64,000 bases of DNA. Origin: a virus (Duplodnaviria; Heunggongvirae; Uroviricota; Caudoviricetes). A model generated the notes under the pieces. The model made no database searches, was not told the origin of the DNA, and saw nothing but the letters and a program-made list of their open reading frames with translations. This document shows positions 632-60,519 of the stretch, in pieces (positions within the stretch are counted from its first letter, which is position 1; every line of letters starts with the position of its first letter). Made by a program: the position numbers and the translations under genes. Where the stretch lies: positions 64,095 to 128,094 of IMG/VR virus record IMGVR_UViG_3300006201_000003. One strand, 5' to 3'.

Positions 632-683
632 TCGCATATCCTCTTTTCTTTGATTTAATTCGCCACTTTATGAAACACGAGTT

Positions 684-1061
684 TCATTCACTCTTTTTCT
701 GTTGATCTGCAAGACATTGATTGATATAATCACAGACCTCGCAGTATTCCCGCATAGCGTGTGCAAGCTGCTCCTGCTTTTCCTTTGGAAGTGTCTCTGC
801 GGTTTTTCCAAGCAACATTGTCATGTGGTCAAGCGGAATGGTCAAACTTCCAGTTGCAACAGATAAATTAGACTGCGGAAAGTATTTCTCATACGGTTGG
901 TTCATCCAATCGTGGAACCATTCTTCACGCTCAGAATTGATTGGAAACCACATAAGACCAAGTAGGGTTGCTTCAAAAAGAGGTTGCGGAAGAGTGCGCA
1001 GATATTCAAAGACAGTCATAGCATACACCTCAAAACTTAAACCCCTTGGTTTGATATCCAA
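684..1061 (-). CDS. Hypothetical protein.
   Basis: 125-aa ORF from the six-frame track; same orientation as neighbouring genes. Confidence 0.5.
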   Translation of the reverse strand: MDIKPRGLSFEVYAMTVFEYLRTLPQPLFEATLLGLMWFPINSEREEWFHDWMNQPYEKYFPQSNLSVATGSLTIPLDHMTMLLGKTAETLPKEKQEQLAHAMREYCEVCDYINQCLADQQKKSE

Positions 1062-1335
1062 GGCTCACTTTCTTCCACTCCGCTTTCAGAAGTGCTTTCA
1101 GCTCTGTAACAACACCATTACACATTTGCTTTGTTGCGCCAAGAACTTCATACTCACATAAGTAAGTGCGGTCTTCTGAAACACCAAAGCCTACATAGAT
1201 GCGTAGAGTGTCAGCCCATTCTATAATGGAGTCGATTGTTCTCTTGTGCTGTTCATAGTAGGCTTGGGCATCACCTACATTCTCTTCAAGAAGAAATGAG
1301 CCTCGCACATACTGCTGTTTTGCCATATAGTTCAC
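1030..1335 (-). CDS. Hypothetical protein (GTG start).
   Basis: 101-aa ORF, tightly packed with its neighbours. Confidence 0.45.
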
Positions 1336-1778
1336 CGTTTTCCAGTGGTGCCAAAACCACCACGATCAGCATTTCCCAGTGTTTCAACAGCCTCAAAAGA
1401 CAGCTGAGGTTGGTGCTTATCAATGCGGAACTGGCAGATGCGGTCGCCAACATGAATCACAGTATCACGCATAGCAATGGCGGGGAAGTACCATTGGTCA
1501 TTATCACCGCAGTAACTCTCGTCGATCATGCCAATATGGTTGGCCTGAATAATACCAAAGTTTTTGAAAGTGGAGCTACGCGGAATCATATATGCCTCAT
1601 AGCCAGTTGGGAGCTGCATAGCAACGCCCAAAGGAATCATCTTGAAATCGCCCTTCTTCATATCCACTTCCTCAGCAGCCCGAAGGTCAATCCAGTCGGA
1701 CTTCCCACCAATATACTGTAGCGGCTTAATTTTGTCGCTCAAATAACGAATCTTGATTGTCTCAGTCATATCAAGCAC
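1332..1778 (-). CDS. dut: dUTP diphosphatase.
   Basis: 148 aa; C-terminal [14 protein letters not shown] matches dUTPase motif V, and upstream motifs fit the dUTPase fold. Confidence 0.8.
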
Positions 1779-1782
1779 CTCC

Positions 1783-2268
1783 TTAAATTCTTGTTCTCTT
1801 CCAGAAATTTTTCATCTTATATGAAGAGTCCTTAGTGACATCCGCCGTGAAACACGGGAGCAATTCAAAATTCTCAGCGGCCTGTACGCTCGGAAACTCG
1901 ACCTCCGCATACATGAACTCGGTGTCACGCCCCTTATCGACATGGGAACATTCCAATTCCAGCCCGCCTGGAAGCTGATAGATACGAAAATCCTTTGTAA
2001 TGAATGGCTGTGTAATCATCTCTGCCATAGCGTAGAAGTGCTCCTTAGTAATATGGAACTCAACCTCTTGACGAACCAACTCTCCGTTGGACTTAATAGC
2101 GAGGAAGTACGCTACATCCTGACCGTTCACTGCGTTGCGCCGGATTCTGACCTCTGGATCAATGGACAGATAGGCTTGATAAACCTGGAACTCCTCTTTT
2201 AGAGGAAGATTGGTTGGAAATGAGTTAAGCAAAAACTTACGCTCAATTTCAATAAATTTGTCTTGCAT
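1783..2268 (-). CDS. CYTH-domain protein (triphosphate tunnel metalloenzyme / CyaB-like).
   Basis: 161 aa; the N-terminal IEIERKFLL is the CYTH ExExK signature. Confidence 0.65.
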
Positions 2269-2284
2269 TTTGGTATTACCTCGC

Positions 2285-2653
2285 TTATTTAGATTCTGCT
2301 GGTTCTTTCAGCCATGCGATAAATTCATCAACAAGCTCTGCTATTCTTGATTCATCCCATTCCACAAAGTCATCAAAGCTCATTGTCCCGATTGCGAATG
2401 CTTCTTTCACCCGTGTCAAATCATAGATATAGCTGTCACCGCAGCTTGCCCACTGACAAAAATAGTCCATCAGCATAGAACGCACTTCGTCTTCTTCTGC
2501 ATTTCGTAGTGCCTCTATATTGGTTTTTGGATCGAAGTCAACGCAAGCACGTGCTCTGTATGCGAAACAGCGTGATCCACGATACATTGCATCACAGCCA
2601 GATTTATTAACTGGGCAGTTCTCACAACCACCAGCATTTAGACCATTTCGCAT
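2285..2653 (-). CDS. Hypothetical Cys-rich protein.
   Basis: 122-aa ORF with multiple Cys pairs. Confidence 0.5.
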   Translation of the reverse strand: MRNGLNAGGCENCPVNKSGCDAMYRGSRCFAYRARACVDFDPKTNIEALRNAEEDEVRSMLMDYFCQWASCGDSYIYDLTRVKEAFAIGTMSFDDFVEWDESRIAELVDEFIAWLKEPAESK

Positions 2654-2662
2654 ATTGTCACC

Positions 2663-58267: not shown

Positions 58268-58302
58268 AAAAGCGGCGGGAGTATTCCCGCCGCCGTTCCA
58301 TA

Positions 58303-58638
58303 TCATGCGCAGAACTGCAACAGCTTTTTGACGTTGTACCGGCTTGCAGCCTCCAGCGTTCTCTCCGTCCGTTCCTTGACGATCTGCCATGCGTCCCCGT
58401 TCTTCTTGCGCTTGAAAATTTCCTCCATGTACTCGCCGCTTCCGTCATAGTGCTTGAAGTAGTACACGCGGCGAATCGTCTGCTCCGTCTCCGTCTCCGC
58501 AATCACTTTCAAAAAGGCCGGATAATCGTTCCCGTATGCGGGATTATAGAGATAGTTTGCAATGTCGAATTTGTAGCCGTTTGGCGCTTCCAGCCTCCGA
58601 ATCTTGTTTATGTACTCCGGTTTGAGATTTCTTGCCAT
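58303..58638 (-). CDS. Hypothetical protein.
   Basis: Start MARNLKPEY after GGAGGT. Confidence 0.5.
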   Translation of the reverse strand: MARNLKPEYINKIRRLEAPNGYKFDIANYLYNPAYGNDYPAFLKVIAETETEQTIRRVYYFKHYDGSGEYMEEIFKRKKNGDAWQIVKERTERTLEAASRYNVKKLLQFCA

Positions 58639-58772
58639 GTTCCATACCTCCAAAAATTTTGTTGTGGGCGCTGCCCTCTATTCTTGTTACAAGACTTTTC
58701 CCCGTTCTGCTAACCGTTCCAAAAAACTTTTTGAAATAGCAAAAGGCCGGGGAAATTCCCCGGCCTCCGTCT

Positions 58773-58949
58773 TTACGCCTCCAGAATCAACTTAATTGCC
58801 TCGTCCGTTGTGATGATCTCTTTATTGTAGAGACTCAGCGCCCGTGCCACGTTACGGAATTTTTCGGCCTTGTGTTCCTCTTTCATCATAGGATTTCCCG
58901 CCGTCCGTTCCATAACATCGGCGGCATAGTCCAGCACAAATTTTTTCAT
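58773..58949 (-). CDS. Hypothetical small protein.
   Basis: Start MKKFVLDY. Confidence 0.4.
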   Translation of the reverse strand: MKKFVLDYAADVMERTAGNPMMKEEHKAEKFRNVARALSLYNKEIITTDEAIKLILEA

Positions 58950-59016
58950 GTGTTCTGCTCCTTCCATATTCCAGCGGGCGGATACCTCGCAGCATCCGCC
59001 CGCTGTCCTCGTTCTG

Positions 59017-59376
59017 TTAGATGAAGTACATTTCGCCGTTGATTTCCAGGGCTACGGCCTCCTGCCCCATCTCATTTTTCAGCGCCTCGCAATGGTCAAC
59101 CACGGCGGCGATCCCGTTCTGCAAGTCCTCATCGCTGGCATAGGCGAAAACTACGGTTGTATTCTCAGCAACCAAGCCGGCCACGGGAGAGAGCCAGTAG
59201 CCCAGGGCGGCGGTGGAGGTGGAGCCGCCGAAGAGATCAGCCAGGAGCGCGGCGGTCTTTTTGACCTGCTCCGTGTTGTCGGTGGCATCGGCTACGCCGT
59301 TCGTGGCGGGCACGTAAACGGTAACTTTGCTGGAGAGCTTGATGCAGGCTTTCAGTTTGGCATTGTTGATTTTCAT
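59017..59376 (-). CDS. Hypothetical protein.
   Basis: Start MKINNAKL after AAAGGGGT. Confidence 0.5.
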   Translation of the reverse strand: MKINNAKLKACIKLSSKVTVYVPATNGVADATDNTEQVKKTAALLADLFGGSTSTAALGYWLSPVAGLVAENTTVVFAYASDEDLQNGIAAVVDHCEALKNEMGQEAVALEINGEMYFI

Positions 59377-59493
59377 AGTATGTAACCCCTTTTCTTTTAT
59401 CGTGGGGCCGGTGGTGGTGATGTCCACCGGCCCGCCTGTTACCTATTACATTTTGATTTTGTTCGTTGCTAACCGGAAGTAAAAACTTTTTTT

Positions 59494-60288
59494 TCACGCC
59501 ACGCCAGCCGACAGGAGAGCCGCCCGGATTTTAGCAATCCGCTTATGGACCGCCACATTGCTGATCTTGTTATCCAGCGCCTGGGCGATCTCGCGCTCCG
59601 TGTAATTCTGCTGTACCAGCTCGACGATCTTCCGGTCGATCTCATCCCGTCCAGCCGTGAACCGTTCCAGATCAACCCGAATAACGGCGCTTGTCTCCGT
59701 GTCATAGCCCGCAGCGGCCACCCTCGTTTCCGTCCAGCTTTCAACGTCGCCGTTATCGTTGACGATCTCAGGGTCTTGCATCGCTTGCCCGTGCTTTTTG
59801 TCCGCCTCCCAAATTGCCATAATTGCGGCTTTTGCGGCATTGTATACAAGGGATTTCAGGGAGCGAGGGCGCAACCCCTTAGCGGCGCGGCGCTCGTTGG
59901 TGACGGCCAGACGGTCAAAGGCATCATAGAGCTTGATATAGGCCGTGTTTACGAACTCGTCGAACTCGTGACCGTGCAAGCCCCAGGCGGCGCACTCGTT
60001 GAATTGGTGGTAGCGATCTTCGGTGCTGTAGCCGATCACGTCTTTAGCGGCCCGCACGGTGCAACGCTGGAGCCACTCGACCTGAGCGGCGGGAGCGGTC
60101 GCGGCCCACTCATTGACCACGGCGGCGGCGTTGATCTCAGCGTTGACGGCCTCAGCCTCAGCCCATGCCTGTTTCAGACAGAGAGAGAAAACGACCTCAG
60201 AGACGGCGCAGCCGATCTCAGCGGCGGCACTCTTGCGGATAGCCCAGGCGCGGCGCATGATAGCGGCCAGATTGTAAGTCTTTTTCAT
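59494..60288 (-). CDS. RNA polymerase sigma factor (sigma-70 family, region 4 HTH).
   Basis: The C-terminal IVELVQQNYTEREIAQALDNKISNVAVHKRIAKIRAAL matches the sigma-70 region 4 pattern; first gene of the leftward transcription unit. Confidence 0.6.
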   Translation of the reverse strand: MKKTYNLAAIMRRAWAIRKSAAAEIGCAVSEVVFSLCLKQAWAEAEAVNAEINAAAVVNEWAATAPAAQVEWLQRCTVRAAKDVIGYSTEDRYHQFNECAAWGLHGHEFDEFVNTAYIKLYDAFDRLAVTNERRAAKGLRPRSLKSLVYNAAKAAIMAIWEADKKHGQAMQDPEIVNDNGDVESWTETRVAAAGYDTETSAVIRVDLERFTAGRDEIDRKIVELVQQNYTEREIAQALDNKISNVAVHKRIAKIRAALLSAGVA

Positions 60289-60519
60289 AATATGTACCTC
60301 TTTCATTGATTTTATTCGCCGCTAAGGGAAAGAGCAGCGGCGGAGAACCGCCAGCCGACCCACCCAGGGGAGAACCGCCCCCCCCTTAACGGGTATACCC
60401 TATTCTACTATATTTTTTCCTATTTGTCAATGATTTTATTCGTCATTAAATGCTTTTCTTGCCAGTCAAAATATACAAAATTCTAACCGTTCAAATAGTC
60501 ATTTTGCCATAGCATTTCG

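Follow-up and report, generated by a model that had tools for sequence, protein, structure and literature searches.

The phage and its genes

We analyzed a 64,000-nucleotide stretch of viral DNA (IMG/VR record IMGVR_UViG_3300006201_000003, positions 64,095 to 128,094), referred to here as the window, and an 18- to 20-bp DNA motif of which it holds 17 copies. When 40 kb of the window was compared with GenBank phages by megablast, nothing was found, and thus no close relative; only distant relatives of the DnaE-type polymerase, from Clostridioides and Bacillus phages, came up. In IMG/VR, we found 58 related loci on contigs of up to ~140 kb (designated below by L and a number). Relatives were embedded in genome contigs of Oscillospiraceae/Clostridia, including a complete chromosome of 3.56 Mb, which indicates that the phage is temperate and infects gut Clostridia.

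Searches against Pfam and PHROGs identified window genes for replication and recombination (NrdD, a DnaE-type polymerase, a primase-helicase, ThyX, and ERF) together with a C5-methyltransferase (C5-MTase), an N6-MTase-helicase, a cysteine desulfurase, PAPS (3'-phosphoadenosine 5'-phosphosulfate)-reductase-like and RNA-repair-type enzymes, an SPFH protein, a pair made up of an Xre-type helix-turn-helix (HTH) protein and an M78 peptidase, and a small protein of the tyrosine recombinase family. Most of the gene labels in the original prediction, which was made from the sequence without database searches, were verified by Pfam; the gene called SLT-like proved to encode a Phage_lysozyme2 domain, and the hits behind the RNA ligase label fell below threshold.

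To the right of the window, the genes are ordered as a YonV_C protein, a 953-amino-acid (aa) protein, YonK, a 408-aa protein, HU, a tRNA array, and the terminase, and the succession YonV_C, YonO-like, YonK, HU, and terminase is the gene order of SPbeta. The 953-aa protein (L094 4973-7834, ~3.5 to 6.3 kb right of the window end) had no Pfam hit; it carries the polymerase metal-binding motif GADFDSD, is weakly similar to SPbeta YonO, and is probably a YonO-type single-chain RNA polymerase in a phage of gut Clostridia. Judged by these sequences, the window belongs to an uncultured SPbeta-like temperate phage of Oscillospiraceae/Clostridia.

A motif repeated across the window

We scanned the window with TTGATTTTATTCGTCGCTAA, allowing up to three mismatches, and obtained nine matches, all on the plus strand, compared with none in 100 shuffles; a scan with a degenerate core gave 16 matches versus 0 expected. 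A position weight matrix (PWM) found the 17 sites, each scoring above 20, while simulated sequences reached a mean maximum of 11.3 and gave 0.2 hits above 14 per window. These scans place the motif far beyond chance and confirm the element noted in the original prediction. One further PWM match, at 7099, was marginal (score, 14.4) and may be due to chance. The mRNA-sense consensus is wTARYRRCGAAYAAAATCA, and the motif in its consensus form, TARYRRCGAAYAAAATCA, is asymmetric and has no dyad. Positions 3, 10 to 11, and 14 to 17 are invariant, and the five degenerate positions vary by transitions only (36 transitions to 0 transversions; 40:8 across the core).

Several copies are placed relative to a class of ~30 cassette promoters on the minus strand (38656-59473; for example, at 56355, 55731, 53295, 52010, 51199, 47824, and 46304), which read tGGTTAGCAAA-N13-cTGTAATAAnAAT-AGGAGG, usually follow a T-run or terminator, and each drive one small gene. 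The copies are as follows, with SD standing for Shine-Dalgarno sequence and TSS for transcription start site.

650 to 669 (position 652), minus strand: copy AAAGTGGCGAATTAAATCAA, ~20 nt ahead of the ATG (631) of the Phage_lysozyme2-domain gene, in a compact intergenic region.
8308 to 8327 (position 8310), minus strand: copy AAAGCAACGAACAAAATCAA, abutting the SD (AAGGAGG) of thyX in the 45 nt that follow the DnaE-type polymerase gene, where we detected no promoter.
16840 to 16859 (position 16842), minus strand: copy ATAACAACAAACAAAATCAA, abutting the SD of the ERF recombinase gene.
17800 to 17819 (position 17802), minus strand: copy TTAGCGACGAACAAAATCAT, within the open reading frame 17512-18144, where it is translated as SDEQNH; it starts at ~+2 of an internal promoter-like site (TTGAAA-17-GATAAT) and is kept in L001, L007, L062, and L063.
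19161 to 19180 (position 19163), minus strand: copy TTAGCAACGAATAAAATCAT, its final base within the -35 of the C5-MTase gene promoter (12/12 consensus, TTGACA-17-TATAAT; TSS, ~19126) and its start at ~-53; L004 and L005 have the identical promoter layout with the lineage C variant of the motif.
26936 to 26955 (position 26938), minus strand: copy TTAGCGACGAATTAAATCAA, abutting the SD of the 479-aa RNA-ligase-like gene.
28177 to 28196 (position 28179), minus strand: copy ATAACGACGAACGAAATCAA, in the cysteine desulfurase leader, with a strong terminator-like hairpin (28100-28175) after it.
32664 to 32683 (position 32666), minus strand: copy ATAATGACGAATAAAATCAA, upstream of a 55-aa open reading frame and the SPFH gene, with an 11-bp hairpin before it.
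33713 to 33732, plus strand: copy ATAGCAAACAACAAAATCAT, weaker and inverted, its TAGC end touching the -35 of a leftward promoter (33713..33685, TTGACA-17-TAGTAT).
38549 to 38568 (position 38551), minus strand: copy ATAGCGACGAATTAAATCAA, which lies in the MTase-helicase leader and follows the cassette promoter at 38656 by ~70 nt.
44242 to 44261 (position 44244), minus strand: copy GTAATGGCGAATAAAATTAA, ahead of the SD of a 274-aa gene and downstream of the cassette promoter at 44349.
50731 to 50750 (position 50733), minus strand: copy TTAGCGGCGAATAAAATCAT, occupying the -35/spacer of a cassette-type promoter, GGTTAGCG-16-TATAAT, with its start at ~-33 and a terminator just upstream.
59453 to 59472 (position 59455), minus strand: copy TTAGCAACGAACAAAATCAA, occupying the -35/spacer of the cassette promoter GGTTAGCA...TGTAATAGG after the HTH gene; the orthologous promoters of other lineages hold their own motif variant.
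60306 to 60325 (position 60308), minus strand: copy TTAGCGGCGAATAAAATCAA, in the leader (~+71), ahead of the SD of the 264-aa HTH gene.
60430 to 60449 (position 60432), minus strand: copy TTAATGACGAATAAAATCAT, touching the -35 of the leftward promoter of the HTH gene (TTGACA-17-TAGAAT; TSS, ~60395), with its start at ~-53.
61385 to 61404, plus strand: copy ATAATGACTAACAAAATCAA, separated by 10 nt from the downstream -35 of the rightward promoter (12/12; TTGACA at 61413-61418, TATAAT at 61436-61441), with its start at ~-62; this layout is kept in 23 relatives.
61474 to 61493, plus strand: copy GTAACGACGAATTAAATGGA, at ~+27 of the rightward promoter, overlapping the SD of the 254-aa tyrosine-recombinase-family gene (61503-62267).

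All 12 positions given in the original prediction were real, and five copies had been overlooked: 17802 and 44244, and 33713, 61385, and 61474 on the plus strand. The switch region accordingly holds four copies instead of two, and the feature reaches 61493. Fourteen window copies lie in the sense of minus-strand genes, two (right of the switch region) in the sense of plus-strand genes, and one (33713) is inverted. To extend the set, we combined the window with the flanking sequence of L094, L098, and L099 on the right and L106 on the left (~91 kb of a 117-kb genome), which gave ~26 copies, 17 in the window and at least 8 outside it; 24 of the ~26 are co-oriented with transcription. The 9 kb of the late region (terminase/portal) that was sampled had no copy.

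Positions relative to promoters and genes

The motif had been described as lying just 5' of the ribosome binding site of at least 12 genes. This holds for ~10 window copies, which are 0 to 9 nt ahead of an SD. Elsewhere the copies are placed differently: those at 19163, 60432, and 33713 (inverted) adjoin a TTGACA -35, that at 61385 lies 10 nt upstream of one, those at 50733 and 59455 fill the spacer of GGTTAGC cassette promoters, and that at 17802 is in a coding frame. The original prediction was correct that the MTase copy adjoins a consensus -35 and that the copies at 50728 and 59452 (its coordinates) merge with the cassette promoter. The TTAGC core that it saw in both motifs is present in 6 of the 17 window copies, largely as a result of copies overlapping the GGTTAGC -35 box.

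We computed registers relative to sigma-A-like (host-type) promoters, using one script for this phage and for SPbeta, and the copies fell into several classes. Upstream of the -35, the 3' end of the motif overlaps the hexamer at 19163 and 60432 and is 10 nt away at 61385 and L106:12038 (start, ~-62); two inverted copies, at 33713 and L094:10021, are joined to the -35 by their TAGC end, as GCTAT-TGACA. A second class (50733 and 59455) lies within the spacer of a cassette promoter. A third starts at ~+1 and consists of 17802, L098:10047 (equivalent to L094:10056, at the tRNA-Thr promoter), and L106:12100, and weaker -10-like elements are found ahead of L094:7954 and L106:19247. The tRNA-Thr promoter reads TTGACA-17-TATAGT, and the motif ends 1 nt before the tRNA; ahead of tRNA-Ala, a copy lies 6 nt away. 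A fourth class is deeper in leaders, at +27 (61474), at +71 (60308), or downstream of cassette promoters (38551 and 44244).

Four promoters are bracketed by two copies, namely, those of the HTH gene, the recombinase gene, L106:12128, and tRNA-Thr, the upstream copy of the last pair being inverted. Both host-type promoters of the window that match the consensus at 12/12 positions have copies, as does one of the three scoring 11/12 (the HTH-gene promoter); a fourth strong promoter is sited among the palindromes of a different repressor.

Two leaders with a copy have further sequence features. Between the cassette promoter and the copy, the leaders at 38570-38640 and 44265-44335 (minus strand) share ~35 nt (ggtYctgggaKGC..ccg.t.aa.aaGCCTCACCC), so that the unit repeated at 38.6 and 44.3 kb exceeds the motif. 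At 28095-28200 (minus strand), an SD-like AAAGGAGG stands between the copy at 28179 and the start codon of the cysteine desulfurase gene and is locked in a hairpin with a 16-bp stem and a U-run after it (-36.7 kcal/mol, z = -4.3), an arrangement that resembles a leader terminator or attenuator.

We also evaluated whether the motif might act in RNA, as a leader element at which a phage protein or an antisense RNA would bind the mRNA and control its translation, stability, or processing. The copies close to an SD are where such an element would be expected, the transition-only variation is of a kind that G-U-tolerant pairing permits, and the inverted copy after the HU gene would put an anti-motif in the rightward transcript. 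However, mutation of the deamination type, together with a protein that reads out purine versus pyrimidine, could leave transitions alone as well, and the inverted copies have G or C at degenerate positions, so that they would mismatch many targets. Copies upstream of the -35 in the switch region (60432 and 61385), inverted copies, and spacer copies are not expected in sense RNA, and a consensus fold of 11 leaders gave no base pairs. No copy showed a conserved secondary structure or matched an Rfam family, the Rfam matches in the window being tRNAs elsewhere.

An inverted copy set against a -35 makes sense on DNA and not in RNA, and copies 1 nt from tRNA-Thr and 6 nt from tRNA-Ala indicate a role that is not translational. 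Taken together, the inverted and untranscribed copies, the copies right before tRNA genes, the copy in a coding frame, and the lack of an RNA structure or Rfam family argue for DNA rather than RNA, and we regard a leader element acting in RNA as quite improbable. The same observations bear on two roles suggested in the original prediction: a translational enhancer is disfavored by copies that precede two tRNA genes, that lie ahead of a -35 or inside a spacer, or that are intragenic, and an RNase processing site is disfavored by the lack of a conserved RNA structure and by the several copies not expected in sense transcripts. Pairing with the 3' tail of 16S rRNA was rejected by reasoning, as the motif extends the SD only by AAA before GGAGG. 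In cluster K mycobacteriophages, start-associated sequences are repeated right upstream of many start codons; these include the ribosome-binding region and are tied to translation starts, whereas the motif described here also stands ahead of tRNAs and -35 boxes, inside promoter spacers, and in one coding frame.

Lineage-specific variants of the motif

Next, we compared the copies across the related phages, in which conservation had been proposed as a check. A copy was nearly always present at orthologous positions, including those upstream of the thyX, ERF, and MTase genes, on both sides of both switch promoters, and at the first cassette promoter, and its sequence was specific to the lineage. 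Lineages A/B (the lineage of the window and its 78 to 80% relatives) have the variant ACGAAYAAAATCA, lineage C has GCAACAAAATCTCT, lineage D has GACGAATAAAATTA, and lineage F has CAACAAAGWAAATCA; more distant lineages have further AT-rich variants. Across the same lineages, the TTGACA/TATAAT promoters and the ~30 cassette promoters (GGTTAGC...TGTAAT) are constant. What we observed directly is that the sites exist, where and in which orientation they lie, and that they evolve in concert and differently in each lineage. To judge from these alignments, copies that change in concert beside fixed promoters bear the mark of a trans-acting specificity factor and its co-evolving sites, and the pattern resembles that of the operators of heteroimmune phages, with an immunity-type specificity.

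Individual copies can differ between close relatives. L098 has a copy (7945) ahead of the YonK (late) operon that is absent in L099 (~8285), where a sequence shorter by 12 nt stands in its place, and the adjacent HU protein of this relative is 97% identical. This suggests that individual sites are gained and lost quickly.

A probable dispersed operator on duplex DNA

From these results, we infer, with a probability of about 60%, that the motif is a dispersed operator on duplex DNA that is bound by a phage regulator, most likely a repressor. Of the roles listed in the original prediction, only that of a binding site for a phage regulator is supported, by the operator-type positions, including untranscribed and inverted ones, and by the lineage-concerted change next to constant promoters. 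That the regulator would repress, rather than act otherwise, is suggested by sites that lie over the -35/spacer or over +1 to +20 and by the bracketing of the strongest promoters, including those that start both divergent early operons. The asymmetric 18- to 20-bp site would be recognized by a sequence-specific regulator encoded by this phage, which would repress early and middle transcription units. Bound against the -35, across the spacer, or over +1 to +20, the protein would occlude or trap the host RNA polymerase; paired sites around a promoter might allow cooperative binding or looping, and copies in leaders and between cistrons might serve as roadblocks.

Several observations speak against an operator. 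Six copies (652, 8310, 16842, 26938, 28179, and 32666) lie in short intercistronic gaps with no detectable promoter, where an operator would have no obvious target save read-through transcription. The co-orientation of 24 of the ~26 copies, most of them 0 to 9 nt from an SD or the 5' end of a tRNA, would be explained more directly by a promoter or an RNA element, although the operator of SPbeta described below has the same bias. Unlike most repressor operators, the motif is without dyad symmetry. Finally, no binding protein was pinned down among the candidates that we considered, and searches of ~91 kb of the 117-kb genome detected neither an MrpR homologue nor one of P1 C1.

The strongest rival is a phage-specific promoter of ~20 bp, read by the YonO-like RNA polymerase or by the HTH "sigma-like" protein. 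Transcripts would then start a few nucleotides past AAAATCA, so that mRNAs would begin at the SD and tRNA precursors would be nearly leaderless. Such a promoter would account for the asymmetry and co-orientation of the motif, for its tight spacing to the SD (0 to 9 nt) or the tRNA 5' end (1 to 6 nt), and for the intercistronic copies without a promoter, which are mere roadblocks if the motif is an operator. The lineage variants could be the product of co-evolution between a polymerase and its promoter, a YonO-like polymerase with the GADFDSD motif is encoded, the promoter of SPbeta YonO is still undefined (PMC5467207), and the ordinary promoters of this phage already have a -10 that adjoins the SD.

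Against it, four host-type promoters have a copy on each side, two copies lie within the spacers of other promoters, and the two inverted copies at a -35 would fire antisense into coding regions. TAAAAT was rejected as a -10 of the sigma-70 type, since its key positions 1 and 2 vary (T/C and A/T/G), while such a -10 has an invariant A at position 2 and T at position 6, and no -35 stands at the right spacing (16 to 18 nt), and TTAGC was rejected as a -35, there being no consistent hexamer ~18 nt downstream. The HTH protein has one and the same recognition helix in lineages that have different motifs. SPbeta YonO is reported to use a single late promoter (PMC5467207), whereas copies here precede early and middle genes and the operon of the polymerase itself; a YonO late promoter was also rejected on the grounds that a close relative has lost the copy ahead of the YonK operon by deletion. 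Promoters of the T7 type (20 to 23 bp) are similar in length, asymmetric, co-oriented, variable between lineages, and upstream of a purine-rich start and SD, but the copies here flank, sit in, or oppose host-type promoters, and no polymerase of the T7 type is encoded in this phage. On balance, we consider a phage-specific promoter unlikely.

Comparison with known dispersed operators

The closest parallel to the proposed operator that we examined is SPBRE (SPbeta repeated element), the operator of the SPbeta master repressor MrpR (YopR), which was defined by chromatin affinity purification sequencing (ChAP-seq); 10 bound sites match a 15-bp repeated element (PMC10516654). We recovered SPBRE de novo from the SPbeta genome as 11 copies, all co-oriented with the downstream gene. 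Its registers were -57 (aimR and the first yonX copy), -26 in the spacer (yorE, yorM, yorZ, and yonP), and, directly before the SD, +4/+7 (yopV and the second yonX copy). One pair of copies flanks a promoter, and one copy, like the thyX copy here, occupies a tiny gap behind the DnaE-type polymerase gene.

Both elements are thus multicopy (10 to 11 in SPbeta and at least 25 here) and located in the early regions of a large temperate phage with a YonO-type polymerase. They take the same three positions (at or ahead of the -35, within the spacer, and shortly past the TSS directly before the SD), all or nearly all of their copies are co-oriented, and pairs of copies flank promoters. They differ in sequence, without any similarity (SPBRE reads ..ACAAATACAAAWAATATGTATATAAT.., and the motif here TARYRRCGAAYAAAATCA), and SPBRE has the dyad ATACA-N7-TGTAT, which has no equivalent here. 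In addition, a homologue of MrpR was not found in the 91 kb and appears only in the distant L055, some copies here precede tRNA genes, and binding here is only predicted.

A second parallel is the C1 repressor of phage P1, which binds as a monomer to more than a dozen sites. These operators, as annotated in NC_005856, are 17 bp, asymmetric, ATTGCTCTAATAAATTA-like, and "monovalent." As here, asymmetric sites of ~17 bp are dispersed over the genome of a large temperate phage, overlap or abut sigma-70 -35 boxes, and are sometimes paired or inverted; in contrast to P1, no C1 homologue was found in the ~91 kb of this phage, and the host phylum and the sequence differ. The resemblance in composition to the P1 C1 operator (GC..C.AATAAA) may be due to chance. 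By analogy, the motif would work like the SPBRE and C1 operators, and we do not assign it to either family.

If the operator reading is right, the sites provide a regulatory map for a widespread uncultured family of temperate phages of 100 to 140 kb in gut Clostridia. The map would show which promoters are guarded, and the operator "dialects" of the lineages would imply immunity groups. It would also suggest that the strategy of SPbeta, in which one regulator acts at many dispersed, co-oriented sites, is general in phages with a YonO-type polymerase. The lineage variants offer a handle on the cognate regulator by covariation over many genomes and could help to predict superinfection immunity among gut prophages. 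What the analysis provides is a testable regulon map with lineage dialects, and no new principle.

Candidate binding proteins

We evaluated several candidates for the binding protein. The 264-aa HTH protein (59494-60288), whose gene had been labeled a sigma gene, gave no sigma hit in Pfam or PHROGs, and a sigma factor was not confirmed. A profile search against PDB matched Lrp/LuxR-type HTH domains only, and the predicted structure (predicted local distance difference test [pLDDT] score, 46) was too poor for use. We rejected it as the binder, as its recognition helix is invariant while the motifs of the lineages differ. By its sequence, the C-terminal recognition helix, which does not vary in any lineage, is a better match for the equally constant GGTTAGC box than for a motif that varies. 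The protein is a candidate factor for the cassette promoter class, given that the -35-like box, the -10, and the recognition helix are all invariant.

The Xre-HTH/M78 pair (34388-35415) was rejected on the grounds that it has palindromic operators of its own (TATCACG..CGTGATA). At 34230-34370, repeated palindromes of this form (TATCACG..N..CGTGATA) are interleaved with divergent consensus promoters between the ImmR/ImmA-like pair and a leftward 146-aa gene; as far as the sequence indicates, this arrangement resembles a separate, second repressor-operator switch within this phage.

Homologues of the two known repressors were also considered. A tblastn search with P1 C1 against the window and all loci gave no hit at E ≤ 10, and no homologue of MrpR was detected in the window or in the loci of this lineage (91 kb of the 117-kb genome). 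L055, a distant relative with 48% primase identity, encodes at 304-1221 a protein that is 25% identical to SPbeta MrpR/YopR (E = 3e-15); this protein was rejected as the binder in that no counterpart was detected in the lineage of the window. Covariation of the motif variants with the HTH or recombinase proteins was uninformative: five lineages are too few, and the identities follow overall divergence.

The remaining candidate is the 254-aa protein of the tyrosine recombinase family (61503-62267). Its gene has an autoregulation-like layout, in which copies flank its promoter, and the protein, the only one with a recombinase fold in the sequence sampled, retains all catalytic residues. BLAST and hhalign detected no similarity to MrpR, and the protein resembles YopP only weakly. 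We consider it doubtful that the motif is the binding site of this protein. If it were, the protein might represent a living intermediate on the path of MrpR from recombinase to master repressor, and it might still recombine the at least 25 co-oriented sites, turning the gene modules into cassettes that can be excised or exchanged.

In another explanation, the small tyrosine recombinase would use the copies as sites of recombination, or they would be short linker homologies that favor module exchange between related phages. The retained catalytic residues, the copies flanking the recombinase promoter, the location of copies at module boundaries, and the presence of one copy in one close relative and its absence in another are in line with recombination. 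The motif, however, has no inverted-repeat core with a central spacer, as tyrosine recombinase sites do, and recombination between direct repeats would delete essential genes. Recombination would also leave the fixed registers to the -35, the -10, and +1 unexplained, and the lineage variants would hinder exchange between lineages. We therefore regard recombination sites as very improbable, and the least probable of the explanations considered.

Other features of the phage

Between the divergent early promoters, ~900 bp (60450-61330) are GC-rich and apparently non-coding. They contain short direct repeats (GGAGAGAGG runs, CAGACAGACAGACGG, and two copies of CCCCGCCTCAGCCTTGCCC) and no inverted repeats, and they are possibly an origin or a regulatory spacer.

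An accessory cluster at 19764-28101 encodes two PAPS-reductase-like proteins, a cysteine desulfurase, a DUF2828/DUF7788 protein, a polynucleotide-kinase-like protein, a nucleotidyltransferase, and an RNA-ligase-like protein, and a Thg1-like enzyme is encoded left of the window (L106 13429-14232). The sequences of these genes suggest functions in DNA modification and tRNA repair. Rfam identified four tRNAs on the minus strand (29906-30470 and 31012-31101), of which three, 114 to 118 nt in length, were missed by ARAGORN and may have introns or be otherwise unusual. The sequence GGTTAGCAACCGCCGAATAT touches the 5' end of tRNA-Ser.

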